A DNA stretch of 64,000 nt from positions 14,600-78,599 of the forward strand of contig CAWCBC010000013.1 in NCBI GenBank assembly GCA_963793705.1. The letters are read 5' to 3'. How positions within the stretch are numbered: the stretch's first letter is position 1; every line of letters begins with the position of its first letter. The DNA is from an uncultured Acidobacteriota bacterium. Its GTDB lineage: Bacteria > Acidobacteriota > Vicinamibacteria > Vicinamibacterales > UBA2999. Of this stretch, positions 7,725 through 52,316 are shown one piece after another. The position numbers and the translations under genes are program-made. The notes below the pieces were generated by a model. That model was not told where the DNA came from and searched no databases. It saw only the letters and a program-made list of their open reading frames with translations.

Positions 7725-7753
7725 GGAGGCCGACCTCAAAGGTCGGCCTCTAC
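7725..7753. repeat. REP-like hairpin GGCCGACCT-CAA-AGGTCGGCC followed by CTAC
   Basis: Stem 7725/7728-7736 pairs with 7740-7748/7751; tail tctac ends at 7753. Same stem as the copies at 22620, 32028, 46538 and 52286. Confidence 0.7.
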
Positions 7754-7785
7754 CAGGAGCTTAACCACGAAGTGGTTCACATTCC

Positions 7786-9474
7786 TTAGTTCGCCCGTCC
7801 TATCGATTGACCCGACACGATGATCTCGACGCGGCGGTTCTGCTGCCGGCCGGCGGCAGTGCCGTTGGTGGCGACTGGCCGCGACTCACCGAAGCCGACC
7901 GCGGCGACGATCGGCTTGCTGATGCCCTGCGAATTGAAGTACGTCCGCACCGATTGCGCACGGCTTTCAGACAGCCGCTGGTTGTGCTCTTCCGAGCCCG
8001 TGCTATCGGCGTGCCCCTCGATCTCGATCTTCAGATCGGGATGCGACTGGAGAATGCCGGAGATCCGCGCCAGCTTTTCCCGCGCACCGGGTTTCAGCGT
8101 CGCCTTGTCGACGTCGAAGAGCACGTCCGACAGGTTGATGATCAGGCCGCGCGCGGTTTCGCGCGTTTCGAGGATGACGTTCAGCTGTTGCCGCAGTTGC
8201 TCGCGGGCCGCGTCGCGATCGCGCTCGGCCTGCTCTCTCGCCAGCCGCGCCGCCGACGCGTCAGCGGCATTCTGGTCGGCGAGCCGCTTCGCAGCGTCCG
8301 CCTGCAGCTTCGCTGTGTCCGCCTGCGCCTGAGCCGCTGCGCGCGCCGCGTCCGCTTCCGATCGGGCGCGCTCGAGATCCGCCCTCGCCCGTTCCGACGC
8401 AAGACGCTCCCGCTCAGCTGCCGACCGCGCCGCTTCGGCCTCGGCGCGCTGCCGTTCGGCCAGTGCCCGATCGCGATCGAGTCGCGCGCGCTCGTCTTCC
8501 GCCTGACGGCGACGGTCTTCTTCGGCACGGAGCCTGGCTGCCGCGTCTTCTTCACGCTGCAGCGCGATGCGCCGCTGCTGCTCCTGGTACTCCGCTTCCT
8601 GCCGCTGCAGCGCGATCAGCCGCGCATCCTCAGCGGTCTGTGCGGCCTGCCGCGCGGGCTGCTGGACCTGATTCCCCTTCCTCCCCTTCTCTCTCGCCAC
8701 CTCCGCTTCGGCCAGTAGCGACGCGGCCTTGGCGAACGTGTCGGATGCGTAGCGATCGGCGCCGGCGATCCGCGCGAGCTCAACGGCGTTGCGCGCCTGC
8801 GCGAGATCGAGCGGGGCACCTGGCTCGAGCGGCTTGACCTTCAGGACCGCCGGGTCGCGGTTCATCAGATACGACCCGCGTCGCAGCAGTTCGTACTTCG
8901 CTTCGAGCGCCTCGACGCGACCCTTCGTCCGCTCGAACCCTGATTCGCGGACGATGTTCTCGATGACCACCACGTCGCTGGGCTGCGACACGGCAAAATA
9001 CGGTTCAGCCGTCACGACCAGCGCAAACGACTGGAGCTCGGTCGTCACCTGGAGGCGGCCGTCGTTACCGTTCACCTGAAGCTCACCGAGGTTGGTAGCT
9101 CGTCCTTCCGGCGTAATGGCCCAAGGGACGTAGGTCAGGTACTCGCGGCCAAAGCGCTGCGGCCCGTCGAGGTCGTCGAAATGCGCATCGATCTTGATGT
9201 AGCCCTTCTCTCCCTCGACCGACGCCCAGCCTTTTGCCTTCGGCAGCAGCGTCGTGCCGGCGAAGTTGATCCGTGTGTCGCCCGAGCGCGGGCGGTAGTT
9301 GATCGCGGGCACCGTGCGGCCGACAACAGTGACGCGGAAGACCGGTATGTTGCCCTGCGCCGTCGCTACGCTCTGCTGAGTGGGATTGGGAGCTGACTGC
9401 GCCGACGCCAGCACAGGCCTGGCGGCGGCGACCACGGCCGTAAGCAGAAAGACTGTCGCGACTCGCTGAAACAT
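7786..9474 (-). CDS. OmpA-family protein with long Glu/Arg/Ala coiled coil and C-terminal OmpA peptidoglycan-binding domain
   Basis: Start moved to MFQRVATVFLLTAVVAAARPVLASAQ (ATG at 9474), which gives a signal peptide. The C-terminus NLSDVLFDVDKATLKPGAREKL...IEIEGHADSTGSEEHNQRLSESRAQSV...RRVEIIV is a canonical OmpA_C. Confidence 0.85.
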   Translation of the reverse strand: MFQRVATVFLLTAVVAAARPVLASAQSAPNPTQQSVATAQGNIPVFRVTVVGRTVPAINYRPRSGDTRINFAGTTLLPKAKGWASVEGEKGYIKIDAHFDDLDGPQRFGREYLTYVPWAITPEGRATNLGELQVNGNDGRLQVTTELQSFALVVTAEPYFAVSQPSDVVVIENIVRESGFERTKGRVEALEAKYELLRRGSYLMNRDPAVLKVKPLEPGAPLDLAQARNAVELARIAGADRYASDTFAKAASLLAEAEVAREKGRKGNQVQQPARQAAQTAEDARLIALQRQEAEYQEQQRRIALQREEDAAARLRAEEDRRRQAEDERARLDRDRALAERQRAEAEAARSAAERERLASERARADLERARSEADAARAAAQAQADTAKLQADAAKRLADQNAADASAARLAREQAERDRDAAREQLRQQLNVILETRETARGLIINLSDVLFDVDKATLKPGAREKLARISGILQSHPDLKIEIEGHADSTGSEEHNQRLSESRAQSVRTYFNSQGISKPIVAAVGFGESRPVATNGTAAGRQQNRRVEIIVSGQSIGRAN

Positions 9475-9555
9475 GGGTTGGGACCTCCGCCGTCCAGCAG
9501 AGCAAAGCGTTCGCCAACACCTCGTACCTGAACGTTTTGTCAGGAAAACGTAACG

Positions 9556-9584
9556 TTGCCTTCCCGAAACGGCTGCGGTAGACT
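9556..9584 (+). promoter_or_regulatory. Candidate sigma-70-type promoter for the cytochrome c' gene
   Basis: TTGCCT (9556-9561), 17-nt spacer, TAGACT (9579-9584), about 70 nt upstream of ATG 9657. Pattern match only. Confidence 0.3.
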
Positions 9585-9656
9585 CGCGCCGCATTGCCTC
9601 ACTTTTCCCCCAAGAAGTCTTCCATTCCCTACAGCTCGACCCCGAGGAGAGCACGT

Positions 9657-10224
9657 ATGAAACGGTTGTGTGGACTGATCGCTGTCGCGGCGTTCGTTGC
9701 CGTTGGTTGTAACAAGCCTGCCGAAGCTCCGGCGCCAGCCGCGTTCGTGCCAACGCCGCACGGCTCGCTCAAACAGGTGATGCAGGCGATTCCGTTTGGG
9801 TCGTCAAACATCATCTTCGACGCGCAGAATGACGACCCGGGGCAAGCCGAAAGCGGCGGACGCCGGCGGCAACGCCACCGCGCAGTACTCCGGCACCTAC
9901 GGCGGCTGGATTGCGGTTGAAAACGCCGGCATCGCACTGCAGGAAACGGCCAACTTGATCATGCTCCCGGGCCGCAAGTGCGGCAACGGTCAGCCGGTGC
10001 CAAACGATCAGGAGGACTTCAAGAAGTGGGCAGCGGATCTGGCGACTGTCGGCGCCGAGGTCACGAAGTGGGGCCAAGCCAAGGCCTGGAGCCAAGAAGC
10101 AGCAGACGAACTGACCGGCAAGGTCTCTGACTCGTGCTCGAACTGCCACGACAAGTATCGCAACACGCCGAAAGAACCCGACGACCGCTGCATGGTCACT
10201 GCCGCCCCGGCAGCGGCGAAGTAA
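9657..10224 (+). CDS. Cytochrome c'-like (class II c-type cytochrome) lipoprotein; one frame correction at CCCGGGG 9836-9842
   Basis: MKRLCGLIAVAAFVAVGC lipobox. A single heme motif CSNCH lies near the C-terminus, as in class II cytochromes c. The N- and C-terminal parts sit in ORFs 9594..9920 and 9796..10224. Confidence 0.7.
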
Positions 10225-10236
10225 CGGACGGTTCGG

Positions 10237-10773: not shown

Positions 10774-10777
10774 GCGC

Positions 10778-11607: not shown

Positions 11608-12981
11608 ATGAACGACCTCACCACCGGCTCCCTGTCGCGCCATCTGCTGCAGACCACCAGCTACATGCTGGTGACGATGCTGTTCCAGACGCTGTATGTG
11701 CTGGTGGATCTCTACTGGGTGGGACGGCTCGGAACCGAAGCCGTCGCCGCCGTCGGCATCAGCGGCAATCTGCTTTTCATCGTGCTGGCCGCGACCCAGA
11801 TGCTGGGCGTCGGCACGACCACGCTCGTGGCGCACGCCGTCGGGCGGCGCGATCAGGCACGGGCAAACCTGATCTTCAACCAGGCGCAGTCGCTGTCCGC
11901 AGTGGTCGGCATCGTCTTCCTCGCGCTGGCGATGGCCACCAGACGGACGTACGCGGAGGCGCTCGGCGCCGACGCGCTCACACGCGACCTCACCGGACAG
12001 GACCCGCTGTGGTTCATCCCGTCACAGGCACTGAGCTTCCTGCTCGTCGCCATGGGCGCAGCCCTCCGCGGCACCGGGAATTTCCGGCCGGGCATGATCG
12101 TGCAGACCGCCACCGTCATCATCAACATCGTGCTGGCGCCGGTGCTGATCTTCGGCTGGGGCACGGGCCGGCCGCTTGGTGTGGCGGGCGCCGCGATCGC
12201 AACGTTCGTGGCCATTCTGATCGGCGTGGCCTGGATGACGCTGTACTTCCTGCCCGACAGCGCCTACCTGAGATTCCACCGCTACGACTGGCGGCCCCGG
12301 CTCGATCTCTGGTCAGGCATGCTGAAGATTGGCCTGCCCGCGGGCGCAGAGTTCGCGATGATGGCGGTGTACCTCGTGCTCGTGTATTCGGTGTCGAGGC
12401 CGTTCGGCGCCTCCGCACAGGCCGGATTCGGGATCGGCCTCCGTATCGTCCAGGCCTGCTTCCTTCCGGTCGTCGCGCTCGGGTTCGCCGTCAGTCCCGT
12501 CGCTGGACAGAACTTCGGCGCGCGGCAGGCTGCACGCGTGCGGGAGACGTTCCGCACCGCAGCGGGACTGGCCGCCACCGCCATGCTCGTGCTCGCGATC
12601 CTGGTGTGGGTCGCCGCCGATCGGATGATGCAGGTCTTCTCATCCGATCCGGCGGTGATCGCCGTGGGGGAAGAGGACCTGCACGTCATCGCCTGGAACT
12701 TCGTCGGCTCGGGCGTTATCTTCGTCACCTCGAGCATGTTCCAGGCAATGGGCAATACGATTCCGTCTCTGATTACCTCGGCGTTCCGGATTGTGCTCAT
12801 TGCGATCCCGATCCTGCTCCTGGCAAACGCCCCGGGCTTCACGCTGCTGTGGATCTGGTACATCTCGGTCGGCGGCATATTCATTCAGCTGGTGATGAAC
12901 CTGCTGCTGCTCCGCCGTGAGTTCCGCGTGCGACTGGCTTTTGAAAGGCGATCAGGCACCAGGCCACAGGGATCAAGCTGA
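11608..12981 (+). CDS. MATE-family multidrug/toxin efflux transporter
   Basis: Start moved to MNDLTTGSLSRHLLQTTSYMLVTMLFQTLYVLVDLYWVGRLG (ATG 11608). About 12 TM segments with typical MATE N-terminal wording. Confidence 0.85.
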   Translation: MNDLTTGSLSRHLLQTTSYMLVTMLFQTLYVLVDLYWVGRLGTEAVAAVGISGNLLFIVLAATQMLGVGTTTLVAHAVGRRDQARANLIFNQAQSLSAVVGIVFLALAMATRRTYAEALGADALTRDLTGQDPLWFIPSQALSFLLVAMGAALRGTGNFRPGMIVQTATVIINIVLAPVLIFGWGTGRPLGVAGAAIATFVAILIGVAWMTLYFLPDSAYLRFHRYDWRPRLDLWSGMLKIGLPAGAEFAMMAVYLVLVYSVSRPFGASAQAGFGIGLRIVQACFLPVVALGFAVSPVAGQNFGARQAARVRETFRTAAGLAATAMLVLAILVWVAADRMMQVFSSDPAVIAVGEEDLHVIAWNFVGSGVIFVTSSMFQAMGNTIPSLITSAFRIVLIAIPILLLANAPGFTLLWIWYISVGGIFIQLVMNLLLLRREFRVRLAFERRSGTRPQGSS

Positions 12982-13000
12982 GGCTGAGCCGGCCCTTAGC

Positions 13001-13017
13001 TGAGGCCTGAGGCCTCA
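13001..13017. terminator. Hairpin TGAGGCC-TGA-GGCCTCA just after the MATE stop
   Basis: 7-bp GC stem 20 nt after stop 12979-12981. No clear U-tract. Confidence 0.35.
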
Positions 13018-13072
13018 GGCCTCTCAACGGCACCTCTATTGCCTTCCTTAATCTCCAGGGGGCATACGAACC

Positions 13073-13315: not shown

Positions 13316-13322
13316 TGAGTAG

Positions 13323-13910: not shown

Positions 13911-15862
13911 GTGATTCAACCCCAGAGCTCGCGAGCAGCAGCGCCGGCGTCTGACGGCGTGGCCAGCTGGTACACACCTGGCGTCGTTGATGGTTTCGGC
14001 GATCGGTTGTTGATGTTCGACAACACCGAAACCGACTCGCTGGAACTGCTTCGCTTCTACCCCTCGCTCACCGCGATCGACGGCTTCGAAGACGCCCTGC
14101 ACGAGCGCGTCCGGCAGGTCGGGCGGATCCCCGACGATGCGTTTCCCTTGATAGTCGCCGTGGAACGTCTCGAAGGCGACGGCGCGCTGGCGCTCGTCTC
14201 CACCCACACGCCCGGCAAACGGCTGTCGGCCTTCTTCGACAAACCGGGTCCGCGTCGGGGCCTCAATCCGGCGTTCGTCACGGGCATCGTCAGGCAGGTG
14301 ATCCAGGCGCTGGCGATGCTGCAGTCGAAGGGCGACGGCCTCACCCACAGCGCGATCACGTCCGACCGCATCGTCGTCACACCCGGTGGCCGCATCTGCG
14401 TCGTCGAGCACGTGTTGGGCCTGGCCCTTCGTCGCCTCAATCTATCGGCATCGCAGCTATGGCGTGAATTCGGGCTCGTCTCCGCGCCCACGCCGACCGG
14501 TGCGATCAAACTCGACGCCAGAACCGACGTCTTTCAGCTCGGCGTGCTGACGCTGGAGCTGCTGCTCGGCCGCCGACTGACCCTGCTGGATCTCAAGGAT
14601 CGCCTGCCTGACCTGCTCGATCAGTGGAGCGACGCTGCGACGCGAGCCGGAATGGCGAGCGACCGGCTGCGTGTCTGGATCGAGCGGGCACTGCAGCTCA
14701 GTGACCCTGCTTACGGAACCGCTGCCGACGCGTATGCGGACCTGCGCGACCTGCCCTCGGAATCGCCGGCGTCTGCGTTCGACTCGCTGCCGACAGGAGA
14801 CAACGCACTCGTCACACGTTCACTTCAACCCGCGAAACAGGCGGCTGGACAGGATTCCCCCATGGCCAATGCCCCTGCGCCCGACGATGTCCCGATCAGC
14901 ACGCCGCCGCCGACACGGCCAGCCCTGATGCCGACCGAACCACTCTGGACGGACTTTGCACCCGAAGTGAAGTCTGTGGCTGCCGTACCAAGACTCCGAG
15001 AGCCGGTTCCGGTCGAACCGACGCCAGCCCCGAGGATGCCGCCGGCACCGAGCCTGCCGGCCGCGTCGACGGCCGCCGTTCCGGCCGTGCCGAAGGCTCC
15101 GGTACCGGCCGTGTCGAAAGCCGCGGTACCTGCCGCGGCCGCAGCGAAGGCCGCCACGCTACGCCGAACACTCTTCAAGGCGCCGCGAGTCTCGCCCTGG
15201 ATTGCCGCGGCGCTGGGCGTCGTGGTGCTCGTCGAAGCCGGCTTCATCGCGGCGTTACTGATGCGTCAACCCCCGGATGTCGCTGCGGGCAGCGCGGGCC
15301 CTGGCGGCACCGGTTCATCATCGATCTCGGCCGATGCGACGCGCTTATCGACCGCGCCCGTCGTTCCGGCTGCTCTCGTCGTCGAGCCGCAACCGACACC
15401 GCCGCCCAAGCCTGGCGCCGACCCGATCACAGCCGCAGCCGGCAACCAGCGCTCGGGCGGCGTGAGGCTCGTCACGCCGATTGAGCTCAAGGTACTGCAG
15501 GGAGACAAGGTGCTCGGCTCCACGACGGACGGACCGATCATCGCTCCGGCTGGAACCCATCAACTGGATTTGAGCAACACCGCCCTCGGCTTCCGAACGC
15601 GCATGGCCGTGACATTCCGCTCCGGTCAAATAACGAGCGTGAACGTGACGGTTCCATCGGGCAAGGTCAGCCTGAACGCGCAGCCGTGGGGCGAGGCGTT
15701 CATCGACGGCCGATCGGTCGGAGAAACGCCGCTCGCGAATCTGAGCGTTCCGCTGGGTGAGCATGAGGTCGTATTCCGCCACCGAGTCTGGGAGAGCGTC
15801 GCCAAACGATCACCGTGCGCGCGGATGCCCCGACGCGGGTCAGCGCCACGTTCGATAAGTAA
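13911..15862 (+). CDS. Membrane protein: N-terminal degenerate protein-kinase-like domain, Pro/Ala linker, one TM, C-terminal PEGA-like domain; frame correction at 15782-15783
   Basis: Kinase-like wording without the catalytic HRD motif (GLTHSAITSDRIVV instead of HRDxKxxN). TM segment WIAAALGVVVLVEAGFIAALL. Adding one C at 15782-15783 restores the tail VFRH-PSLGERRQTITVRADAPTRVSATFDK with stop at 15860-15862. Confidence 0.65.
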
Positions 15863-22603: not shown

Positions 22604-23411
22604 CTAGGCGAACACGAGAGAGGCCGACGCTAAAGGTCGGCCTCGTACCGGCATCGTGGACTTCGTGGTTTGAATCAGCTCGGTGATCAGAGGAAAGTGA
22701 TCGGACGCCTCGCGAACCTCGTTCGCCGAGAACACCTGACACCGTGACACGCGGCCGACACATGGCTGCGGCACGAAGAGGTAGTCGAGCCGCACGTGCG
22801 GATCCCACGTTGGAAAGGTGTGTCCGACGAGATCGGGATTCAACGCACGGAACGCGTCGACATATCCCGCATCCAGCACGCCTTGTATCGTGCGCCAGCG
22901 GACCTTCCCGCCGCTCAACCAGACCAGCGCACGCAGGCGCGTGGGCAGCCTGGTGAAGTCCAGGAGCTCGCCGGGCGCGAGCGTGTTGAAATCGCCGACG
23001 AGCACGTGCGGCCCGTGCTGATGCTGCTGGATCGCCAGCAGCAGCGCGCGAAGCTCGTACCGCCTCCGATGCTCAGTCCACGCCGCGTGCACGGCGCTCA
23101 GATGGACGCCCACAATCCGCCACGCGCCTCCAGCCGGGACGATCTCGATGAAGGCGTGGCGCGAGACGCGCGGCTTCCGCCATTCCACATGGTCGAGCGG
23201 CTGCCGCGAGAGGTAGCCGAGCGACTGGCCGCGGCGCGAGCCCCAGTAGGCGAGGCCGGTATCGTGCGCCAGCTGCTCGATCACCAGCGGGCTTGGCGGC
23301 CTCCTGCAAGACGACCACGTCGGGATGCGCAGCGCGAATCACGCCCGCCAGCGCCGCTTCGCGCCCACTGCCACCGTGGCGGATGTTGTAGGACAGGATG
23401 CGAATCGTCAC
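22604..23411 (-). CDS. Endonuclease/exonuclease/phosphatase (EEP) family protein; one frame correction near 23285
   Basis: MTIRILSYNIRHGG...HPDVVVLQE (23073..23411) continues as VGVHLSAV...LVGDFNTL...SDHFPLITEL (22604..23284). These are the canonical EEP motifs. Confidence 0.8.
22620..22648. repeat. REP-like hairpin GAGGCCGAC-loop-GTCGGCCTC followed by GTAC
   Basis: 9-bp stem 22620-22628 / 22636-22644. Same stem family as 7725 and others. Lies inside the last codons of the EEP ORF as printed. Confidence 0.6.
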
Positions 23412-25986: not shown

Positions 25987-26247
25987 TTGGTAAACTCAAC
26001 TGGCGTGGCACGTGGATGGGAAAGCAAGTCGGTCGAGGCACAGCAGGACGCGGCGAACGCACCGCGCTCCAACACGCCTGCGCTGACCCCTGAACAAGCG
26101 GCACAAAAAGCCGAACGCGCCACGCTGATGCTCGCGCGTACTCGCGCGCTCGCCGATCTTCAGAAGGCCTGCGTGGCCGCCCACCGGGCGATGCTCGAAC
26201 AGGCCATCGCCGATCTCGACCAGCGGCTGGCGGCGATCGATTTGTAG
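25987..26247 (+). CDS. Small conserved-looking hypothetical protein (GWESKSVE N-terminus)
   Basis: 86-aa ORF; the real start may be GTG 26005 (MARGWESKSVEAQQ...). The stop TAG 26245-26247 lies inside the GTAG of the following hairpin cluster. Confidence 0.45.
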   Translation: MVNSTGVARGWESKSVEAQQDAANAPRSNTPALTPEQAAQKAERATLMLARTRALADLQKACVAAHRAMLEQAIADLDQRLAAIDL

Positions 26248-26320
26248 GCACCCTTGAAAAGGGTGCCCTACGTCCTCGTAGGGCGACGTCCTCGTAGGGC
26301 GCCCCTTTAGGGGTGCCTCC
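26244..26320. repeat. Cluster of nested REP-like hairpins (GTAG-GCACCC-TTGAAAA-GGGTGC-CCTAC; CCCTAC-GTCCTC-GTAGGG x2; GGCGCCCC-TTTA-GGGGTGCC)
   Basis: Read directly. Lies between convergent genes 25987..26247 (+) and 26323.. (-). Confidence 0.7.
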
Positions 26321-26322: not shown

Positions 26323-29300
26323 TTACACACTCATGAGCACCGCGCGCGCTGGCTTCCCTGTCGCCTCCGCAATCGCCTCTGCGTAGAGCTGCACCTGCCG
26401 TGCGTAGCTGGCCTGCAGTTCCCCTTCGGCGCGGTCGGTCTTGAAGTCGATCACCAGGAATCCCTGTTCGGTTTCGAACGCGAGATCGACGTTCCCCTCG
26501 ATCAACTGCCCGTCGCGCACGATGGTGGTCGGCGTTTCCCGGAGGAGCGCGCCACGCTCCGCAGCGCGTCGCGCGTCCGCCAGCAGGCTGTGATTCAACA
26601 CCGTTCTAACCACCTGCTGCGCCGAGGCCACTTCATCGGATGGTGCGGCGACGATGCGGCCCTGGACGGCGACGATCTGATTACTGGTCACCTCATCCGC
26701 GTCGAGCGGCACCGCCGCCAGCGATGCGTGCACCAGCGTGCCGAACCGCGGCCCGGACGGGCGGGGATCGGACTGTCGGCAGCGTCACAACCTCGACTTG
26801 GAACTTGGCACTTGGCACTTGCCACTTGTCACTTCCGCCGCCCCCTCGCCCACTCGGTCGCCGTCCGAACCTTCACCGACGGCTGGGCCGCACGCGTTCG
26901 TGCATCGTCGCGGGTGTTTCGCCACGTGATATAGCGGGCCGTGCCCTCGGCCACGACTTCGAGCGCGACATCCTTCGAGATCAATTCCTGCCGCCGCAGG
27001 CCGAACGGCGGTTCGGCGCCAAGCCGCAGCGCCGCCGGATCCCACCAGACGACATCGAATGGCGGGTCCGCCTCGCCGGCACCGGACCCTTCGACTCTGG
27101 TGCTCTGGAGCTCGGCGGAACCCGCCCCACGGGGATGTTCAGACCGAAATCCTGTGGCTGCCAGGAGCAACCGTCTGCGACGACGCAACGCCCTCATCAG
27201 GCCGCTTCAACACTGAATCCTTCTTGAATGGCGGGCAGCCGGCGGCGCTCGAGGGTTGGCGGCGCGCCTCGACGGCCGGATACAGGGCCTGATCGAGGGG
27301 ACTCAGCCACCCGTCAGACCCGAACGGCTGATCGCCGACGGCCGGGACCACCAACACATCGCGCGCGCGCGTTGCCGCGACATACGCAATCCGAACCCCT
27401 TCCGAGCGCTCGCGTTCCTTCTCCTCAGCGCTCCAGCGGGTCAAGTCCACGGGCGACCATCCGCCGATGCGAACCGCGGCCAAACTCCGGTCGTGATCGA
27501 TGTGACGTGAAGCTTCAAACGGCACCAGCTTCGCCGTCATGTCCGCGAGGATGACGATGGGGAATTCGAGCCCCTTCGCCTTGTGCACGGTCATCAGGCG
27601 GACGCCGTCGCTTCCCTCCTCGACGATCGGCGCTTCACCGGCTTGACCTTCGTCGGCCGCCTGCTGGAGCGCGTCGATGAAGCCGCGGAACGAAATGCCG
27701 CCCGACAACTGGTACTGCCTTGCCAGCTCGGCCACGTGCAGCGCGTTCGCCAGCACCTGCTCACCAGCGCGACGCAGCGCGAAGCCGACGTGCGCACGCG
27801 TGGCATCGAACAAACCAGAGATCGTGTCGGCCACCGCGCGACGGTTTCGCAAGAGGTGCAGCTGCGCCAGCACCCGAAGGGCATCCGCGATCGGCTGAAG
27901 GTGCGTGGGCAGCTCCGGCGGTATCCGAAAGGGATGAAAGGCTTTGGCGTATTTGTGGCGATACTCCAGCAGCTCTTCGTCACCAATCGCGAAGAGCGCG
28001 CCGCGGAGCGTCGCGAAGACGGAGAGCTGATCGTCCGGCCACTCAACCGCCGCCAGCGCCGCGCGGAGCGTTTCGATTTCCTCGCGGCCATGAAAGGCCC
28101 GACCACCGACCAGCAGGTGGTTGACGCCGCGCGCTTCGAGCGCGTCCACGTATGCGCGCGTGATGTCGGTGCCGAAACTGACGAACCGCCGGAACAGCAG
28201 GCAGACGTGGCGCGGCTTCACCGGGATCGGCGGTGCACCATGGTGCTCGGTGACCCGCCATCCACTCTCGTTCACCAGCCAATCGACAAACGCGCCCACG
28301 GCGTCGGGCAGCGAGGCGTCGATGGCCATGCCGGAGATATTCCGCTTGCCGTAGGGCTCAGGGACAGGCAACGCGACGAGGGATGGCTGGCCGTGGAGGT
28401 CGTCGCGCGATTTCGCAAGCGGCACATAGGACGCCTGCAGCGTCTCGCTATCACCGGTCATCAGCGGCGCAAACGCCGCGTTCACGGCGCGCTGCAGGTT
28501 CGGCACGCCGCGGAAACTCGTCGTCAGCCGCTCGCAGCGTGCGCCATGGTCCTGGAGCTGCTGGCACACACGCGAATAGATGCTGACATCCGCGCGTCTG
28601 AACCGGTAAATCGACTGCTTGGGGTCGCCGACGACGAACAGCTTGCCCCGAACGGGCCTCGCGAGTCGCGAGTCGCGCTCGGACGGGTCGTCGGCCGCGA
28701 GCAACAGGAGCAGCTCCGCCTGCAGCGGGTCCGTGTCCTGGAACTCGTCGACGAACAGTCGGGTGAAACGGCGCTGGAAGTGCTCACGAACGTCGGCGCG
28801 GTCGCGGACGAGATCGCGCGCACGCAGCAGCAGGTCGAGGAAGTCGAGCGCGCCATGGGTGGCCTTCAGCCGTTCGTAGCGGTCGATACTTCCCTGCAGT
28901 TCGTGGTGTAACAGGGCCGCCAAATCGGCGTCGGCGTCGGCCTTGAATGTGTCGAGCTGCACCAGCAGCGACTGGTGCGCGGCATGAACATCCGCACGCG
29001 CAAGGCCACGCGCGAATGACGAGCCCATTCCCTTCCGCGCCCGCCGGAAGTCGCGTTCGCGGCACAGATCGACCAGCACCGCTTCAGCCGCATCGTCATC
29101 GCCGGCCGCCATAATCAGGCGGAGCTCATCGCTCGTCCGGCGTGCCGGCGCTGTGTCAACGAACAGCGGGTCGCGCGCGCTCGTCGCCTGCGCGGTGGTC
29201 GCCGCGAATTCGTGGACGCTGGTAACCAGCGCCGCAATCGCGCGATGCCGATCGAAATCAGGTCGTGCCCAGCCCGTCCTGAAGTCGCGCCACTCGACCA

Positions 29301-29979
29301 GGTCCCAGCCCGCCCCCTCAACCGCTCGACCGGCCCATCGTCATTGGCGTCGCCGCCCGGCAGTGGCGACCGCGCCGAGCGACGGAGGGAGCGACGGACG
29401 CCTTCGGGTGTGTTCTCCAGGGCGCCCTGCAGCCACGCATCGAAGGCTTCGGCGTACAGGCGGCGCGCTTCGCTTTCGGTCAGGACGCGGAAGAGCGGGT
29501 CGATGCCCGCTTCGACCGGGCGCTCGCGCAACAGGTCGGCACAAAAGCCATGAATCGTGCTGATGTGGGCCTCTTCGAGGTTCATCAGGGCCGCGTCGAG
29601 ACGTTGCCGCGAGGCTGCATCCAGACCGGATCTCCCGTCCGCCGCTCGAGTTCCTGGCGGAGGCGAAGCTTCAGCTCCCCAGCGGCCTTCTCGGTGAACG
29701 TGACCGCGACGAGATCGCCGACGCCCGCCTTCCCTGTTGCGAGGACGCGAACAATCCGGCGGACCAGCTCAGTGGTCTTGCCCGTGCCGGCCGCAGCCTC
29801 GACCACGAACGTCGAGTCGAGATCGGTGGCGATCGCGTCGCGCGCATCCTGATCGTCGAGCGGAGGAGGTGCACCTGGTCTACCGGAACGCCTTGGCGGC
29901 GTTCCTTCTTGTCTACCGGAATGCCTTGGCGGCGTTCCTCCTTGTCTACCGGAACGCCTTGGCGGCGTTCCTTCTTCAT
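26323..29979 (-). CDS. AddA/UvrD-like helicase with C-terminal PD-(D/E)xK nuclease domain; at least 5 frame changes; may be split before the nuclease domain
   Basis: [30 protein letters not shown] (Walker A), [19 protein letters not shown] (DExx), VHKAKGLEF. Nuclease domain [19 protein letters not shown]...QVQLYAEAI in 26323..26733. Candidate ATG at 29979. Confidence 0.75.
26795..26836. repeat. Heptamer tandem repeat CACTTGG x6 (degenerate) between helicase and nuclease parts of addA-like gene
   Basis: gacttgg aacttgg cacttgg cacttgc cacttgt cacttcc read directly. 42 nt in total. Confidence 0.85.
29878..29976. repeat. Three tandem 33-nt units, each GTCTACC + hairpin GGAACGCC-TTGGC-GGCGTTCC + TTCTT
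   Basis: Units at 29878-29910, 29911-29943 and 29944-29976, with 2 substitutions in the middle unit. On the minus strand they directly follow the candidate addA ATG and read [11 protein letters not shown] x3. Confidence 0.9.
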
Positions 29980-32027: not shown

Positions 32028-32053
32028 GGGCCGACCTGAAGGTCGGCCCCTAC
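32028..32053. repeat. REP-like hairpin GGGCCGACC-TGAA-GGTCGGCCC followed by CTAC, inside the addB-like gene
   Basis: Perfect 9-bp stem. The CTAC 32050-32053 contains the TAG stop (minus strand) of ORF 32050..33276. Confidence 0.8.
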
Positions 32054-33276
32054 TGCTCTCCCTCGACTGCTTCTCCCTCGACTGCTTCTCCCTCGACCGC
32101 CGCCGCGCCGAAGACTTCGTCCTCAGACGCAATCCAGGTCGCCTGAGGCTGGTCCGGATCCGGCAGCTGGCCGAGGGAGAGGTACTCGGCAAATCGCGAC
32201 GCAGACAGACCCTCCGCGGCGCATGCGAGCAGCGCAAGGAAGGCCCGGCCCGCCGGATGCGGGCGGCGCGAGCCGCGATCGAACCAGCCGCGGACGCCGG
32301 CGCGCTCGAACGCGTGCTCGAGCAGTCCGTGGTAGTGCTCCGGCGAGCGGACGAAGACGGCCATCTCGTCGAACGGCACGCCCGTGCGCGCTTCGCGCAA
32401 CACACGGCGGGCGATCTCGACGCACTCGCGTCCCTCGCCCGGCGCCGAGAAGAACTCGAGCGAGCCATCCAGATCGCGTCGGTCCGGAGCCTCGTCCGAG
32501 AAGAGACAGGCGCGCAGGTGATCGAGGTCGGACCGACGTGCACCAGCCACGGTCTCGACCCCACCACCGCACCGCTCGAGCGCCAGCCGCGCGGACTGGT
32601 CATGAGCAGGAACAGTCGCCAGGACCTCGCTCGCCACTGCAACCAGCGCGCTGACGAACGTTTCCTCCATCGCCGTGTCGATCGGCAGGTCCACCAGCAG
32701 CAGCGGCGCGCGCAGAAAGGCTTCACTGGCGACGCCCGCGGCGGCCGTCGCGAACAGCGCCGCGCGGTCGGCTGTTGATGCGTCCATCAGCTCGGCTTCC
32801 GCCTGTTGCGCCAGCGCCACGAGGTCGTGTCCGGCGCGACCGGCGTTGACCAGCGTCGCGGCCGGAATGCCGGCCAGGCGAACGTCGGTCAACGTTCGCG
32901 CGAGCGCGCGCGGAAAGCCGGGCGTTCGGGCGACGACGCCGAAGTAGTCGAGCGTGCCGGCTTCGGCTGCGTCGAACGCGACGCGGCTGGCCACGGCTTC
33001 GACACCCAGCGCGGTGCTTGGGGCAATACCTTCGCCGGCCAGGCGCGTTGCCGCAACGCGGGCCGCAAGCTGCGTCAGGCTGAAGCGCGAGATGCCGATC
33101 GTCGCGCCACGCCGGGTCGCCACACGACGTGCAAGGTCATCGGCCGCGCCGCGCGTCGCTGCCACGATGGTGATGAGCTGGTCGGAAGGAAAGCGATCAA
33201 GGAAACCGGCAGCGCGGTCGAGCCGGATGGCTGCCGAAGCGGATTCGACGATCGAGAACGGGCGGGCTGCGGACAT
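32050..33276 (-). CDS. AddB-like subunit, N-terminal third (helicase-like inactive domain), ending in (AVEGE)x3
   Basis: 408-aa ORF that is collinear with the following ORF. The sequence ...SLGQLPDPDQPQATWIASEDEVFG / [repeat + REP] / [30 protein letters not shown] reads like one continuous protein interrupted by 29 nt including a stop. Confidence 0.65.
   Translation of the reverse strand: MSAARPFSIVESASAAIRLDRAAGFLDRFPSDQLITIVAATRGAADDLARRVATRRGATIGISRFSLTQLAARVAATRLAGEGIAPSTALGVEAVASRVAFDAAEAGTLDYFGVVARTPGFPRALARTLTDVRLAGIPAATLVNAGRAGHDLVALAQQAEAELMDASTADRAALFATAAAGVASEAFLRAPLLLVDLPIDTAMEETFVSALVAVASEVLATVPAHDQSARLALERCGGGVETVAGARRSDLDHLRACLFSDEAPDRRDLDGSLEFFSAPGEGRECVEIARRVLREARTGVPFDEMAVFVRSPEHYHGLLEHAFERAGVRGWFDRGSRRPHPAGRAFLALLACAAEGLSASRFAEYLSLGQLPDPDQPQATWIASEDEVFGAAAVEGEAVEGEAVEGEQ
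32053..32097. repeat. 15-nt tandem repeat x3 (CTGCTTCTCCCTCGA type), coding (AVEGE)3 on minus strand
   Basis: ctgctctccctcgac tgcttctccctcgac tgcttctccctcgac read directly. Confidence 0.85.
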
Positions 33277-35815: not shown

Positions 35816-36766
35816 GTCCGCCTGAAGGCGGACACTACGACGATTTAGTCCGGCTGATGCTGGACCTCACGACCGAGCTGCTCCGTCATCCCTTGACCAG
35901 CAATGAGACTGCACTACGATACGGCGCGTATGCGACACGCGGTGATTGCGGCAGTGATGATCATGACGGGGGTCCACCAGGCCTGGGCGCAACGTGCATG
36001 GGCGCACCATCGTTCCGCGAGAAGCCGATGCAGGGCGGGCTCACGGCATCGTTTGTCGGCGAGCGGCATGAGGTCGGTGGCACATTTGCCGCAGGCAAGC
36101 CGTCTCTGTTCGGCAGCGTCGGCGTCCTCGCGACGCACATTTCGTTTCTGGGCACGGCTCCTACATTGACACTCGGCGTCGGCACCGAAGTGCCCTCGGC
36201 CGATCATCCGGTGTTCACCTGCCCGCTGCTTCAGGTGGCGTTCACCTCGGGACCGGACGTTGAGCCGTTCGACACGTCGATCATCGGCGTTCGCGGCGGC
36301 ATCAGCGTCGGCGCCATCGTTGCCCGAGTTGCCTGCCGAGAACGGGATTTCCAGCGCGGGGATGACCTAACCCACCGCTAGCCTCCACTAACCGGACACT
36401 ACGCCGGATCGCTGGCAGGTCCGGCGTGCGCCGGACATCGACAAGGCGCCGCGGGCATGCGGCAAGCCGTTGCGTAGGCCAGGCCGACATCCAGCCGAAG
36501 GCGGAAATCGGGCGGAGCGATTCATCCGCGCGTCTTCCGTCTACGCGTTCGAGTTGCAATGAATCAGCTCGGACGTTTAGTGCCGTGCAATGGATCAGCA
36601 GCGAATAGCCGCTAGACGCGCGGGAACCGGCAGGGTACGAGCGAGGACCGATTTCCCGGCCGCAGCCTCCGCAACGGCGGCCGCATGTCCGTGGCGCCCT
36701 CGCCAGGTCCGGCTGAAGCCGGACACTACGTCGACACGAAGGCGGACCTGACAAGGTCCGCCCCAC
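35816..36766. repeat. About 1 kb region with at least five REP-like hairpins of the GTCCGSC-TGAA-GSCGGAC-ACTAC type
   Basis: Hairpins at 35816-35838, 35848-35870, 36419-36436, 36707-36729 and 36741-36766, plus a half-copy CCGGACACTAC at 36392-36402. Confidence 0.7.
35930..36381 (+). CDS. Possible small secreted protein, frameshifted
   Basis: MRHAVIAAVMIMTGVHQAWAQ signal-like start (ORF 35903..36169) joins ...GGLTASFVGERHEVGGTFAAGKPSLFGSVGVLATHISFLGTAPTLTLGVGTEV... in ORF 35668..36381. Weak evidence. Confidence 0.3.
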
Positions 36767-37453: not shown

Positions 37454-37477
37454 GGCACCCCTGAAGGGGCGCCCTAC
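37454..37477. repeat. REP-like hairpin GGCACCCC-TGAA-GGGGCGCC followed by CTAC
   Basis: Lies in the 26-nt gap between the clpA stop and the pdxH start. CTAC 37474-37477 contains the clpA TAG stop. Confidence 0.75.
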
Positions 37478-39714
37478 GACCCGACCGCCAGGCGGATCTC
37501 GCCGCCGTCAACGACGATGCGGACCACGCCGCCCTCGGACAGCGATCCGAACAGCAGCGCTTCCGACAGCGGCTTCTTGACGACACGCTCGATCAGGCGG
37601 GCCATCGGACGCGCGCCGAACGCACGGTCGAACCCCTTCTCCGCCAGAAATGCTCGCGCCTCCGGAGTCAGCTCGATCGTCACGCGCCTGGCGGTCACCA
37701 TCGACCGCAGCTCGTCGATCTGCTTGTCCACGACCTTCTCGATCTCGGCCGTCCCGAGGACGTGGAAGGTGACGATGGCGTCGAGACGGTTGCGGAACTC
37801 GGGCATGAACATGCGCTCGAGCGCCCCGCGCGACGAGGCGCCGATGGCGCTATCGCCGAAGCCCACCCGCCGATCCGACAGGTCGCGCGCGCCCGCATTG
37901 GTCGTCATGATCAGGATGACGTGGCGGAAGTCGGCCTTGCGGCCGTGCGAATCCGTCAGCGTGGCGTGGTCCATGACCTGCAGCAGGATGCTGAACATGT
38001 CCGGATGCGCCTTCTCGATCTCGTCGAGCAGCAGCACCGCGTGCGGCGCCTTGCGAATGGCGTCGATGAGCAGGCCGCCTTCCTCGTAGCCGACGTATCC
38101 CGGCGGCGCGCCGATCAGCCGCGACACCGCGTGCTTCTCCATGTACTCGGACATGTCGAAGCGGATGAACTCGATGCCGAGGATGCGGGCGAGCTGGCGG
38201 GCCAGTTCCGTCTTGCCGACACCCGTCGGCCCGGCAAACAGGAAGTTGGCGATCGGCTTCTCGGCGCTGCGCAGACCGGAGCGCGACATCTTGATCGCCG
38301 ACGCGACCTCACCAATGGCGTCGTCTTGTCCGAAGATGACGCGCTTCAGCTCGACGTCCAGCGCCTGCAGCGCGCGCTTGTCGTCGGCCGACACCGCCTG
38401 CACCGGCACGCGCGCCATCTTGGCGACAATCTGCTCGATCTGCTCAGGGCCAATCTGTCCCGAGGCGCTGCTCCGCCGGCAACAGCTTCTGCGCCGCACC
38501 CGCCTCGTCGATCACGTCGATCGCCTTATCGGGCAGGTGCAGGTCCTGCAGGTGGCGCGCCGACAGCGACACCGCCGCCTCGAGCGCTTCGTCCGTATAG
38601 CGGACGCCGTGATGGAGCTCGTAATGCGGGCGGAGGCCTTTGAGAATGTCCAGCGTCTCAGACTCGGACGGCTCCAGCACGTCAATCTTCTGGAACCGGC
38701 GCGACAGCGCGCGGTCGCGGTCGAACGACTGCTTCACGTCGCTGAACGTCGTCGATCCGATGCACCGCAACGACCCGCTTGCCAGGGCCGGCTTCAGGAG
38801 ATTGCCGGCGTCCATCGCGCCGCCGGACGCGGCGCCGGCGCCGACCAGCGAGTGAATCTCGTCGATGAACAGAATGGCGTTCTCTTCCTTCGAGAGGCGA
38901 TCGAGCACCTGCTTGACGCGCTCTTCGAAGTCGCCGCGATACCGCGTGCCGGCGATGAGCGCGCCGAGGTCGAGCGCGAACACCTTGGAGTCCTTGAGCA
39001 CTTCGGGCACGTTGCCCTGATGAATGCGAAGCGCCAGACCCTCGGCGAGGGCGGTCTTGCCAACGCCAGGCTCGCCGACGAGCAGCGGGTTGTTCTTGCG
39101 CCGTCGGCAGAGCACCTGGATCATCCGCTCGAGCTCGAGCGTTCGGCCGATGAGCGGGTCGATCAGTCCTTCAGCGGCACGCGCCACCAGATTCGTGGCA
39201 TAGGCCTCGAGCGGATCGCTGCTGGGCGGCGCCGGGTTATCGCCGGTCGCCGGCACGGCGGGCGAGTCGCTCCGAGGGCCGTGCGAGATCACACGGAGCA
39301 GCGTCAGGCGATCGATGCCCTGGGCGCGCAGGAAGTACGCCGCGTGGCTCTCTTCCTCGCGAAGGATGAACACCAGCAGGCTGCCGCTGTCTACGTGGGT
39401 GGCGCTCGACATCGCGGCGTGCACCATCGCCTGCTGCATGACGCGGTCGAAGCCAAGCGTCGGTTCCGGCTCGACGGGCTCGATGAGGGCACGGGCGTAA
39501 ACGCCTTTGCCAGCACCTCCTGGAGCTGCCCCTTCATGGCGTTCACGTCCGCGCCACAGGCCACCAGAATCCGCCGCGCCTGCGGCTCGTCAGCGATGGC
39601 GATGAGCAGATGCTCGAGGCCAACGGTGTCGTGCCGAAGGTCGGTCGCCAGCCGGAACGCACGCTGGATCGTCTCCAACGTCTCCGGCGCGAAAGGAACA
39701 GGACTCTTGCTCAT
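37474..39714 (-). CDS. clpA: ATP-dependent Clp protease ATP-binding subunit ClpA; two frame corrections (near 38470 and 39410)
   Basis: N-domain (39391..39714), D1 with GEPGVGKT (38444..39439), D2 with GPTGVGKT and the sensor region (37474..38499). Start overlaps the clpS stop. Confidence 0.9.
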
Positions 39715-45801: not shown

Positions 45802-46506
45802 TTGGCTGTCCGTCTGTTCATCGGGAACCTCCCCTACGGGGCCAGCGAAGCTGATCTTCGCGCCCACTTCGCGGCCGTCGCCGAACCCTCCCACGTCGTT
45901 ATGCCGGTGGATCGCGAGACCGGGCGTCCGCGCGGGTTCGCCTTCGTCGAGTTCATCGACCGCGAAAAGGCCGAGGAGGTCATCAAGAAGTTCGACGCGC
46001 AGCCGTTCCAGGGCCGCAGCCTCGCCGTCAGCGAGGCACGTGCGCGCGAAGATCGTCCGCCCGGGGGATTTGCACCTCGCCCCGGCGGTTTCAGCGGTCC
46101 GCGCCCAGGCGGTGGCGGCGGTTTCGGCGGTCCGCGCCCGGGTGGTGGCGGCGGCTTTGGCGGCCCGCGGCCCGGTGGCGGTGGTGGTTTTGGCGGCCCG
46201 CGACCAGGCGCCCCGATGGGTCCCGGCGGCCGCGATCGCAGCGCCAACTTCGGCCCTCCCGCGCCGCCCAAGCGGTTACGCGGCAAGAAGGGCGGCGCCA
46301 ACCAGGAGCACAAGCCGCGCGGTCCGATCAAAGAACGCAGCGGCGGCCGCATCTATGCGGTCGACGATCTCGATGACCCAGGCAAGGATGATCTCGACGA
46401 CATCGCGACCAGCGCGAAGGACGACGTCGAGGTTGACGTTGACGCGCCGGAGACTCCGGACGCGTCCGAGGCTCCGGACGCGCCGGACGACGACGACGAA
46501 TCGTAG
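45802..46506 (+). CDS. RRM-domain RNA-binding protein with (GGFGGPRPGGG)x4 repeat and acidic C-terminal tail
   Basis: LFIGNLPYGASEADLRAHF...RGFAFVEF (RNP2/RNP1). 33-nt tandem repeats at about 46084-46215. Tail DDLDDPGKDDLDD...DAPDDDDES. TTG start. Confidence 0.8.
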   Translation: MAVRLFIGNLPYGASEADLRAHFAAVAEPSHVVMPVDRETGRPRGFAFVEFIDREKAEEVIKKFDAQPFQGRSLAVSEARAREDRPPGGFAPRPGGFSGPRPGGGGGFGGPRPGGGGGFGGPRPGGGGGFGGPRPGAPMGPGGRDRSANFGPPAPPKRLRGKKGGANQEHKPRGPIKERSGGRIYAVDDLDDPGKDDLDDIATSAKDDVEVDVDAPETPDASEAPDAPDDDDES

Positions 46507-46537
46507 TTCCTCGCTCCCGTAGAGCCGACTGACTTAG

Positions 46538-46559
46538 GGGCCGACCTTCAGGTCGGCCC
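46538..46559. repeat. REP-like hairpin GGGCCGACC-TTCA-GGTCGGCCC
   Basis: Perfect 9-bp stem in the 60-nt gap between the RRM gene stop and the next start. GTAG occurs at 46503-46506 (containing the RRM TAG stop) and at 46519-46522. Confidence 0.75.
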
Positions 46560-48245: not shown

Positions 48246-48323
48246 CCGAAGAAGCGTGGCTTCCGCCTTCAGGCGGAAGAAGAAGGAGGAGGAAAACGAC
48301 GAGCGCGTTCCTCCTCGTTCCCA

Positions 48324-51289: not shown

Positions 51290-51290
51290 T
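51285..51290 (+). promoter_or_regulatory. TATAAT hexamer 9 nt upstream of the STAS gene ATG (possible near-leaderless promoter)
   Basis: tataat at 51285-51290; ATG at 51300. No good -35 seen (repeat sequence upstream). Confidence 0.3.
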
Positions 51291-51299
51291 TTCCGTTCG

Positions 51300-51650
51300 A
51301 TGGAAATTCGTGAACGTGCCATCGGGGACGTCGCCGTGCTCGACGTGATTGGACGCATGGTGCTCGGCGGCGATCGCGCCAGCGATACGCTCTTCAGGAG
51401 CCGGGTCGCCGACCTGTTGGCGGCCGAGAAGCCGCGGGTCATCATCAACCTTGAACAGGTCACGCAGGTGGACACGTCTGGGCTCACCGCGCTGGTCACG
51501 TCGCATTTGACGGCGGCGAAGCGCGGCGGGGCGCTGAAGCTGGTGAACCCCACCGGACGCGTCCGCGAGCTGCTCGGCATCACGCGGCTGGATACGATGT
51601 TCGAGGTGTTCGACAGCGAGAAGCTGGCGGTCGCCAGCTTCGACAGCTAG
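51300..51650 (+). CDS. STAS-domain anti-sigma-factor antagonist (SpoIIAA-like)
   Basis: MEIRERAIGDVAVLDVIGRMVLG...VIINLEQVTQVDTSGLTALV...GALKLVNPTGRVRELLGITRL..FEVFDSE is the canonical STAS pattern with the conserved DTSG(L). Confidence 0.8.
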   Translation: MEIRERAIGDVAVLDVIGRMVLGGDRASDTLFRSRVADLLAAEKPRVIINLEQVTQVDTSGLTALVTSHLTAAKRGGALKLVNPTGRVRELLGITRLDTMFEVFDSEKLAVASFDS

Positions 51651-52285
51651 AGCGGCTTTCCGTTTCGTGTAGGAGGCCGGCCCGGCTCCGCGCGTCGGCG
51701 GCCTCACCGGGCGAGCCTGCTCGCGGCTCCCGGTTCGCGACGTGGAAAATCGGACCCCCGGCATGGTCTGACGAAAACGCCGTCGCCTTGAATGATCCGT
51801 GCGACAGCCTTCAAATCGTGTCGGTAACCGGGTATGTCGGACGGTAGTGGCGATAGCAGCGGCGTCGGCGCAACCACGCCTGGGGGCCCGATTTAACGTC
51901 TCCGCTGATCACGTCGCTCACAGGGAGCCACGATCAGGCTCGCCCGGTGAGGCCATTGAAAACGCGCTGATTGGCGTGGCGGCTTGGCACATTGCGTCGC
52001 CAAGCCTTCGAGCAAGCCGACAGCGAAGTCGAAAGAGCGCGAGGAGGCTGAGACTTCGGCGAGGTTGAGCCGCGCGATCCCGGGGCCCCCGCCGCGCACG
52101 CTTGCGCGGTGGGGTGGAGAAGCGCGGCGACCCGAGCGGCCTGCGAGGCCAACGCCACCGGAGCGCTCTTCGGCGCCGCGAGCGGCTTCGCGACGCGATG
52201 TGCCAAGCCGCCTCGCCAATCTGGGTAGTGGGCTACTTTGAGGGCCCGCTACACGGAATCGAGAACTGCTCTGGCCTTCGCCGAA

Positions 52286-52316
52286 AGGCCGACCTCAAGG
52301 TCGGCCTCTACCCTAC
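52286..52316. repeat. REP-like hairpin AGGCCGACC-TCAA-GGTCGGCCT followed by CTAC-C-CTAC
   Basis: 9-bp stem 52286-52294 / 52299-52307. The second CTAC (52313-52316) contains the aminotransferase TAG stop. Confidence 0.8.

Follow-up and report, generated by a model that had tools for sequence, protein, structure and literature searches.

GTAG-tagged REP families in a Vicinamibacterales genome and RAYT genes flanked by the same repeats in related DNA

A 64-kb stretch of DNA from an uncultured Acidobacteriota bacterium of the order Vicinamibacterales (contig CAWCBC010000013.1; hereafter the window) carries a series of short GC-rich hairpins. These are very probably repetitive extragenic palindromes (REPs) of the GTAG-tagged super-family, with at least four families in one Vicinamibacterales genome, linked to REP-associated tyrosine transposases (RAYTs). 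REPs of the RAYT (TnpA-REP, Y1) type had been proposed in a reading of the window made from its letters alone (the sequence-only reading). This proposal is supported, since the same REPs flank RAYT genes at loci outside the window (L122, L045, L099, L124), and a GC-rich hairpin was confirmed at every coordinate that had been listed. REP copies are gained, lost and decaying over times comparable to those of species divergence, and they build up at tolerated places: right behind open reading frames (ORFs), in short gaps within operons and in disordered protein linkers.

Design and repetition of the hairpins

Read on the GTAG strand, the unit consists of 5'-GTAG, 0-1 base, a GC stem of 7-9 bp, a TTCA-type tetraloop and the complementary stem, 23-28 nt in total. 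The foot is GTAG (nine window copies) or GTGG (two copies), and the stem is either perfect or contains G.T pairs. The window, whose GC content is 66%, holds nine canonical GTAG-tagged copies, one copy with the tag mutated to TTAG and about five decayed or variant ones, a density of about 15 in 64 kb.

Stem sequences fall into at least four classes. Class 1 is defined by the stem GGCCGACC, class 2 (counted here with the class-2-like copy at 26244) by GGCGCCCC/GGGGTGCC with a G.T wobble that is always on the GTAG strand, class 3 by GTAGT-GTCCGSC and class 4 by GTGG-CTTCCGCC-TTCA-GGCGGAAG. The sequence-only reading had recognized three covarying classes; the covariation holds, but the count was too low, as the class-4 copy at 48256-48279 had been missed. 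To describe pairing across classes, 13 copies from different classes were extracted from the window and related loci and aligned. All 91 of 91 cells over the seven core stem pairs are paired, compensatory changes on both sides occurred in 6/7 of these pairs, and T14 and A17 of the loop are invariant. Perfect stems of window copies measure 7-11 bp, with folding energies as single-stranded DNA (ssDNA) of -8 to -11.8 kcal/mol (z-scores -2.7 to -5.3).

GC-rich DNA yields many short palindromes, and at 66% GC the hairpins could in principle be due to chance or base composition: 60 perfect hairpins with 7 bp or more are present in the window, and 41.6 +/- 6.1 are expected from shuffled sequences. 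Searches with class consensus sequences (up to 3 mismatches), however, returned 3, 2 and 2 copies against 0.00 expected, not a single match having been obtained in 100 dinucleotide-preserving shuffles. Perfect hairpins abutting GTAG or CTAC occur 6 times in the window, compared with a mean of 0.40 and a maximum of 2 in shuffles, and the same elements are present at more than 100 public loci. Both the repetition beyond chance and the enrichment of GTAG beside the hairpins, as put forward in the sequence-only reading, are borne out in the window, and chance is refuted as an explanation, its probability being negligible.

RAYT genes and the same repeats in other genomes

RAYT loci were found by a motif screen of fetched loci and subsequently as homologues of the L045 fragment, which led to L122 and L124. 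RAYTs were called with NCBIfam model NF047646 (REP-associated tyrosine transposase, cut-off 80 bits) and also with Pfam PF01797 Y1_Tnp. Scores of the related RAYTs on NF047646 are 100.8 (L099), 108.2 (L122) and 102 (L124) bits, together with 99.3, 136.1 and 88.9 bits; on the IS200 model they reach 29-39 bits, which is under its cut-off of 55.

The L099 gene (53.9 bits on Pfam Y1_Tnp) is preceded by GTAG-GGGCCGACA-TTTA-TGTCGGCCC and followed by GGGCCGACC-TGAA-GGTCGGCCC-CTAC, the classic succession of GTAG-hairpin, RAYT and hairpin-CTAC. The farmland-soil contig L122 encodes a 165-aa RAYT with class-1 REPs on both sides. At L124, the upstream repeat is GTAGT-GTCCGGC-TTTA-GCCGGAC and the downstream one, GTCCGGC-TGAA-GCCGGAC-ACTACG, is exactly class 3 of the window. 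Cognate REPs in inverted orientation around a RAYT occur in related DNA (class 1 in L099 and L122, class 3 in L124) and not in the window. The nearest evidence of RAYT and REP in one Vicinamibacterales genome is L045, from a metagenome-assembled genome (MAG) named Vicinamibacterales, where the C-terminal half of a RAYT gene is followed by a class-1 REP. L129 and L131 contain additional RAYTs with GCGGACC/GCGGGCC stems and GTGG-tagged REPs.

The RAYT motifs PDHLHLL, LWQRSY and YILANP make up a signature that fits subclass 2.5 / group 3 (PMC6006769). Best PDB match of the L122 protein is 4ER8, E. coli TnpA-REP (E = 6e-7), with HUH, WQ and Y-NP motifs aligned.

The absence of a transposase gene from the window, stated in the sequence-only reading, was confirmed: the best tblastn match to any of seven RAYT queries was weak (E = 0.004). 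Two candidates were rejected. This match, at 30992-31138 and considered as RAYT remnant, lies inside the addB C-terminal region, and the ORF on that strand is without Pfam match. The segment 35779-36811, considered as decayed RAYT locus, lacks similarity to RAYTs, and Pfam gave no match for its ORFs.

Distribution of class-1 repeats was determined by scanning public genomes, one genome per species, for GGCCGACCTNAAGGTCGGCC, with the foot lying outside the pattern. At least 118 matching stretches were obtained. Among the matches listed, 36/42 copies in MAGs named Vicinamibacterales are tagged with N-CTAC, and the outer pair of these copies co-varies (G...C or A...T); in a natural negative control (Variovorax, Streptomyces, Bradyrhizobium and similar taxa) the tag is present in 1/12. 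Stems not used for selection are tagged in the same loci as well (GTCCGGC 8/12, GCGGACC 7/8, GTCCGCC 7/8, GCCGACG 6/7). At least 11 exact copies are found in the related MAG MFD05567.bin.1.209. In the sampled loci, a gene-like ORF ends within 120 nt on the GTAG side of 34/80 copies.

Tagged class-1 copies, among the matches listed, are also located on contigs assigned to Coatesbacteria, Stahlbacteria, WOR-3, Zixibacteria and Eremiobacterota. GC content of the candidate-phyla contigs with the class-1 REP is 49-69%, and the loop is in most cases TAAA or TTAA, not TGAA. Loci that combine the class-1 stem with the CTAC foot in Stahlbacteria, Coatesbacteria, WOR-3 and Zixibacteria (49-63% GC) are L008, L016, L017, L026, L035, L050, L059, L075, L079, L080, L086, L095, L096, L119 and others. 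Mis-binning is a possibility for such cross-phylum loci, but in each phylum the combination is shown by several independent MAGs. In a Solibacteraceae MAG (L067, L069, L092, L117), the class-1 stem is followed by YCTCC instead of YCTAC in 4/4 copies, which suggests a lineage-specific GGAG foot.

Turnover of copies and their relation to gene ends

Genes of the window were delimited with a codon log-odds caller, Pfam matches and the gene models of syntenic loci. Window copies are situated in intergenic gaps behind gene ends or in a protein linker (Table 1). They are mostly singletons, 26244-26317 being the sole cluster, and inverted doublets, the predominant form where REPs are organized as REP doublets forming hairpins (REPINs), do not prevail. 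Inverted REP pairs were observed in relatives, at L001 7109-7250 and in the flanks of L122.

Gain, loss and decay were followed in the syntenic relatives L001, L002, L125, L126 and L127. L125 shares 91-92% and L126 about 78% nucleotide identity with the window, and the methionine aminotransferase of the window is 85-91% identical to Vicinamibacterales MAG proteins. Presence of REPs differs between relatives of 75-92% identity. L001 and L002 lack the copy at 52286; L125 has both the addB copy (32028) and the 26244 cluster, neither of which is seen in L126; the clpA-pdxH copy (37454) has a different stem and loop in L126 and is absent in L127. L125 possesses an extra class-2 REP pair where the window has seven unrelated bases (31389-31396). 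At site 22620, L125 carries an intact GTAG-AGGCCGACC-TTCA-GGTCGGCCC 23 nt past a TGA stop and L126 has no REP; the Exo_endo_phos ORF of the window no longer has its native TGA and continues across the decayed copy as far as a TAG at 22604. Two copies are retained over about 75-78% nucleotide identity: that at 46534 is orthologous in L002, where its GTAG is intact, and that at 48256 is conserved at the orthologous site in L001. The segment 35779-36811 is absent in L126 and L127, which have 87-89 bp in its place, and synteny with L125 stops at its left edge.

Since the foot contains TAG, the TAG of a REP can serve as stop codon. This is the case for clpA (37474-37476), the 86-aa ORF at 26244 and the N-terminal addB-like ORF (32050-32052), all three in agreement with the sequence-only reading. 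Two other genes named there have to be taken off the list. The aminotransferase stop (52313-52315) is a native GTG-TAG, identical in REP-less L001 and with the same ending in L002, also REP-less; the gene end reads GTAG-G-GTAG-hairpin, so the REP carries its own GTAG one base later. The RRM gene stop (46504-46506) is 31 nt away from the hairpin, is TAA in L002 and lies outside the element. That the elements occur at stops or remodel gene ends, as was also suggested, is borne out by the addB stop, which was created by interruption, and by relatives of clpA and the small ORF, which use other nearby TAGs. In L126, with an orthologous REP, clpA ends at a TAG two codons earlier; in REP-less L127 it has its own TAG one codon later; and in L125 the 86-aa ORF ends at a separate TAG 10 nt upstream.

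The REP in the addB linker probably truncates the gene. It splits the addB-like gene into ORFs 32050-33276 and 30434-32023, the insertion being located in a variable linker. Homologues P0138, P0141, P0143 and P0230 are continuous from the N-terminal block (...EVFG) through the variable linker to the C-terminal block (DDExAVLAGSL...), and addB of L127 is a single ORF without REP. The two blocks of the window differ in frame, with an offset congruent to 26 nt, and removal of the 26-nt GTAG+hairpin unit joins them in frame. L125 has the same REP and the same split.

Several side observations concern these genes. A 15-nt tandem repeat (CTCCCTCGACTGCTT, about 3 copies; 32054-32100) adjoins the addB REP and encodes (EGEAV)n, the end of the N-terminal ORF; the addB linker is wholly different in L125, L126 and L127. 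A number of conserved genes are frame-broken in the window (clpA 38444-38499, ABC1/UbiB kinase ~24700, FtsW-transpeptidase 56130-56240, glucose/sorbosone dehydrogenase 21554, addA 26733-27139), the FtsW-transpeptidase gene having two frame shifts within 150 nt. All are intact in relatives, and the breaks are probably long-read indel errors, not pseudogenes. Stop codons of RAYT genes may themselves be shared with repeats: the L122 RAYT stops at the TAA of the TAAA loop of its own downstream REP (3990-4004), the L124 RAYT at the TGA of the TGAA loop of its own downstream REP (4316-4327) and the L131 RAYT at a TAG abutting a hairpin (1920-1945). L122 further contains a duplicated gene-end-plus-REP segment and L131 four tandem half-REPs. 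Inside the FtsW-transpeptidase (penicillin-binding protein, PBP) gene of L001, an in-frame REP array (7109-7250) is translated as PGRPEGRP...(ETMGSRGRPS)x3...GRP; the same PBP loop has a shorter GRSPGRP stretch in L002 and none in the window.

Table 1. REPs and their decayed or variant copies in the window
Positions	Strand	Element	Context
7726-7753	-	class-1 REP, GTAGAGGCCGACCT-TTG-AGGTCGGCCTC	32 nt downstream of TAA stop of OmpA-family gene (7786-9753, -)
22620-22648	-	decayed class-1 REP, GTAC tag, 7-nt loop	intact copy in L125
26244-26271	+	class-2-like REP, full palindrome GTAG-GCACCCTT-GAA-AAGGGTGC-CTAC	TAG 26245-26247 is stop of 86-aa conserved ORF
26294-26317	+	class-2 REP, GTAG-GGCGCCCC-TTTA-GGGGTGCC, G.T wobble on GTAG strand	partial copy (GTAGGGCGAC) ahead of it at 26277-26286; REP end 6 nt short of convergent PD-(D/E)XK ORF (stop at 26323)
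32028-32053	-	class-1 REP, 26 nt (GTAG + 22-nt hairpin)	in addB-like gene; homologues continuous across junction
35816-35838	-	class-3 REP, GTAGT-GTCCGCC-TTCA-GGCGGAC	at edge of ~1-kb variable segment
35848-35870	-	degenerate class-3 copy, one stem mismatch, GTGA tag (CTCAC on + strand)	
36391-36402	-	class-3 half copy (ACCGGACACTAC)	resembles tandem half copies beside RAYT in L131
36419-36436	-	class-3 stem (GTCCGGC/GCCGGAC), GTGC loop, untagged	probably decayed copy
36707-36729	-	class-3 REP, GTAGT-GTCCGGC-TTCA-GCCGGAC	identical to REP downstream of L124 RAYT
36741-36766	-	variant REP, GTGG-GGCGGACC-TTGTCA-GGTCCGCC, GTGG/CCAC tag, 6-nt loop	51 nt downstream of pdxH stop; parallels: GTGG-tagged REPs flanking L131 RAYT, GCGGACC-stem REP adjoining L129 RAYT
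37454-37477	-	class-2 REP, GTAG-GGCGCCCC-TTCA-GGGGTGCC	fills 26-nt clpA-pdxH gap
46534-46559	+	class-1 REP, mutated tag, TTAG-GGGCCGACC-TTCA-GGTCGGCCC	between RRM gene and LPG-synthase gene
48256-48279	+	class-4 REP, GTGG-CTTCCGCC-TTCA-GGCGGAAG	conserved in L001
52286-52311	-	class-1 REP, GTAG-AGGCCGACC-TTGA-GGTCGGCCT	1 nt past native TAG stop of methionine aminotransferase gene

The class-4 hairpin is probably within the 5' coding part of a secreted protein; it appears to be placed just past a signal-peptide-like segment and is translated as LPPEGGSH. L002 carries another inverted repeat there (14436-14470), likewise centred on TGAA. The ~1-kb segment 35779-36811, between a DUF488 gene and pdxH, is home of all class-3 copies and half copies. 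The spacer of ~660 bp between the convergent STAS and aminotransferase genes (51651-52312) measures 15-150 bp in L002/L001, and a possible large-loop REP-like element (GTAG-GAGGCCGGCC...GGCGGCCTC, 51669-51705) is found in it just behind the STAS stop. Another palindrome, TTAG-CTGAGGCC-TGA-GGCCTCAG-GCCTC with overlap (13000-13023), lies 18 nt past the TGA stop of gene 11608-12981 and may be a decayed REP-like element. In the addA region, CTACC-GGAACGCC-TTGGC-GGCGTTCC-TTCTT occurs in two copies 66 nt apart (29858-29971); these hairpins, unlike REPs, have CTAC on their 5' side, and 28 nt (29858-29885) are missing from L125.

Alternative explanations, known systems and meaning

Apart from RAYT-linked repeats, the hairpins could be host RNA elements, each selected individually and independent of a transposase, which act as terminators without U-tract or as 3'-end stabilisers and resemble one another owing to the optimal UUCA/UGAA tetraloop on a GC stem. 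We consider this improbable. Location would suit it, as REPs lie mostly downstream of ORFs and are probably transcribed (PMC3733652), and so would the two copies (46534, 48256) kept at orthologous sites and the site 48260, where L002 carries the same TGAA loop on a different stem. All single copies listed in the sequence-only reading turn their GTAG side towards the upstream gene; in a wider sample, however, the bias is just ~2:1 (24 vs 12, p = 0.065) and the class-4 copy is reversed, so that an absolute orientation rule fails. Identical sequences of 20-25 nt at unrelated loci of many genomes, the same sequences bracketing RAYT genes and copies inside coding regions (addB; PBP in L001) speak against RNA elements, as does the conserved unpaired GTAG foot, for which a terminator has no need. 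No T-run follows any window copy on its 3' side (0-5 T in the next 12 nt), as already seen in the sequence-only reading, so the hairpins do not look like intrinsic terminators, and an Rfam search of the window gave no match.

A different possibility, unlikely in our view, is active targeting of TAG stops, GTAG being the insertion target and not part of the element, with copies landing 3' of an existing G-TAG. A short target of this sort is known from IS608, which inserts at TTAC. In clpA relatives that lack the REP, the stop is likewise a TAG at nearly the same codon, and the native aminotransferase end GTG-TAG is itself a GTAG. An excess of TAG beside hairpins, an issue raised in the sequence-only reading, was indeed detected: TAG accounts for 33/69 stops with a GC hairpin within 30 nt and for 121/376 others (odds ratio 1.9, p = 0.014), mostly where the hairpin starts 1-4 nt past the stop, but the test is biased because the sampled loci were chosen for containing REPs. 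The two sites at which the target can be judged lend no support to it, since the aminotransferase REP brought its own GTAG and the frame-restoring 26-nt unit at addB includes GTAG. Moreover, 6/99 class-1 copies provide the stop of a gene-like ORF and about 35 have an ORF end within 110 nt upstream, which is not above a one-in-three frame expectation. The simplest reading is that stop-sharing is passive: elements are placed right behind ORFs, and the foot gives an in-frame stop one time in three.

The interpretation of the hairpins as RAYT-linked REPs has weak points of its own. Presence of RAYT and REPs in the same genome is deduced from relatives, because the window contains no RAYT, and no RAYT flanked by class-2 REPs was found in the loci examined. 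Conservation of the 46534 and 48256 copies fits a selected host function as well as old insertions. The frame arithmetic at addB rests mainly on the same REP and split in L125, because the window has frameshift-like breaks resembling long-read errors. Finally, we know of no organism in which transposition of a REP by a RAYT was directly shown, the evidence consisting of in vitro cleavage and strand transfer.

By analogy with characterised systems, the REPs would be recognised and cut as ssDNA by a RAYT/TnpA-REP enzyme, a Y1 HUH nuclease with its gene in another part of the genome, and each REP family probably has a RAYT paralogue of its own. The conserved foot and TTCA loop would be determinants of recognition and cleavage, with a stem that co-varies with the enzyme. 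An ORF that enters a REP in the right frame would terminate at the TAG of the foot. Effects at the RNA level are plausible too, such as 3'-end protection or slowed ribosomes at a hairpin-abutting stop; REPs near stop codons can slow or stall ribosomes. Binding and cleavage of the GTAG-strand hairpin are known for RAYTs of E. coli, S. maltophilia and Marinomonas; in the group-3 REPtron of S. maltophilia, binding of the folded hairpin by the RAYT depends on the loop, cleavage depends on GTAG, and the cut is made at a CT close by (PMC8266576).

Group-3 REPtrons/SMAG (S. maltophilia; Xanthomonas and Pseudomonas REPs; Nunvar 2010, PMC2817692; Corneloup 2021, PMC8266576) share with the present elements a REP of ~23 nt with a 5' GTAG/GTGG foot, a perfect GC palindrome of 7-9 bp, a loop of 3-4 nt, several REP families per genome, each beside its own RAYT, and a RAYT of about 150-165 aa with motifs D-H-L/F-H, WQ and YI-x-ANP; published similar sequences are GGTAGTGCCGGCCGCTGGCCGGCA and GGTGGGTGCCGACCGTTGGTCGGCAC. 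They differ in host (Gammaproteobacteria, here Acidobacteriota of the order Vicinamibacterales) and in stem sequences. In addition, the TTCA loop is here common to all families, window copies are mostly singletons and not REPINs, and enzymes were characterised in those systems, while Vicinamibacterales RAYTs are known from sequence. The REP of Thioalkalivibrio sp. HL-EbGR7, GTAGGTCGGCCTTCAGGCCGAC (Nunvar 2010, Table 1, PMC2817692), has a GTAG foot, exactly the TTCA loop and a 7-bp GC stem that comes close to a permuted class-1 stem, in a different stem register and phylum. E. coli REPs with TnpA-REP (RayT/YafM; 4ER8) likewise combine a Y1 HUH enzyme with a single-stranded hairpin bearing a GTAG foot, but they are longer, imperfect bulged palindromes (group 2) organised in bacterial interspersed mosaic elements (BIMEs). 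IS200/IS605 elements (IS608, ISDra2) have a related Y1 fold and subterminal hairpins recognised on one strand; the RAYTs described here, in contrast, are below the IS200 and above the RAYT cut-off, and the repeats are 25-nt units that are dispersed without carrying a transposase gene, not IS ends.

The closest parallel is the GTAG super-family of Di Nocera, De Gregorio and Rocco 2013 (PMC3733652), whose members lie behind ORFs, between unidirectional or convergent genes. Their termini often supply the TAG stop to flanking ORFs, and intragenic copies are concentrated in recombination/repair genes (recBCD, uvr). The window elements are alike in ORF-downstream location, TAG stop sharing, an intragenic repair-gene copy, clusters and partial copies. 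As TAG sharing and repair-gene REPs were published in that work, the most striking points of the sequence-only reading are not new. GTAG REPs were described there from Proteobacteria, Cyanobacteria, Chloroflexi and the PVC group, and from Acidobacteria just RAYT-like genes flanked by terminal inverted repeats. Our literature search found no report of GTAG REPs in Vicinamibacterales, and neither that survey nor the RAYT surveys consulted report any from Acidobacteria. Modestly new are the host phylum Acidobacteriota and the recurrence of one 25-nt REP among several candidate phyla.

The known range of GTAG-REP/RAYT systems now includes Acidobacteriota, a soil phylum that is abundant and little studied, and probably several candidate phyla as well; the view of how REPs work is unchanged by this finding. 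For annotation it follows that a TAG directly before such a hairpin may be a repeat-derived stop, and that two ORFs with a 26-nt REP between them may belong to one interrupted gene, as in addB. What could merit further study is the presence of one and the same 25-nt element across phyla. It is conceivable, though we hold it to be rather doubtful, that the class-1 REP (R-GGCCGACC-TNAA-GGTCGGCC-Y-CTAC) and a group-3-like RAYT constitute one lineage that has moved between distant phyla, and that the elements, tolerated or used by the host, also shape coding sequence in Vicinamibacterales by supplying stop codons, splitting addB and being translated as PBP linker peptides. If true, such a cross-phylum lineage would contradict the current view, in which REP/RAYT systems are inherited vertically and belong mainly to Proteobacteria.

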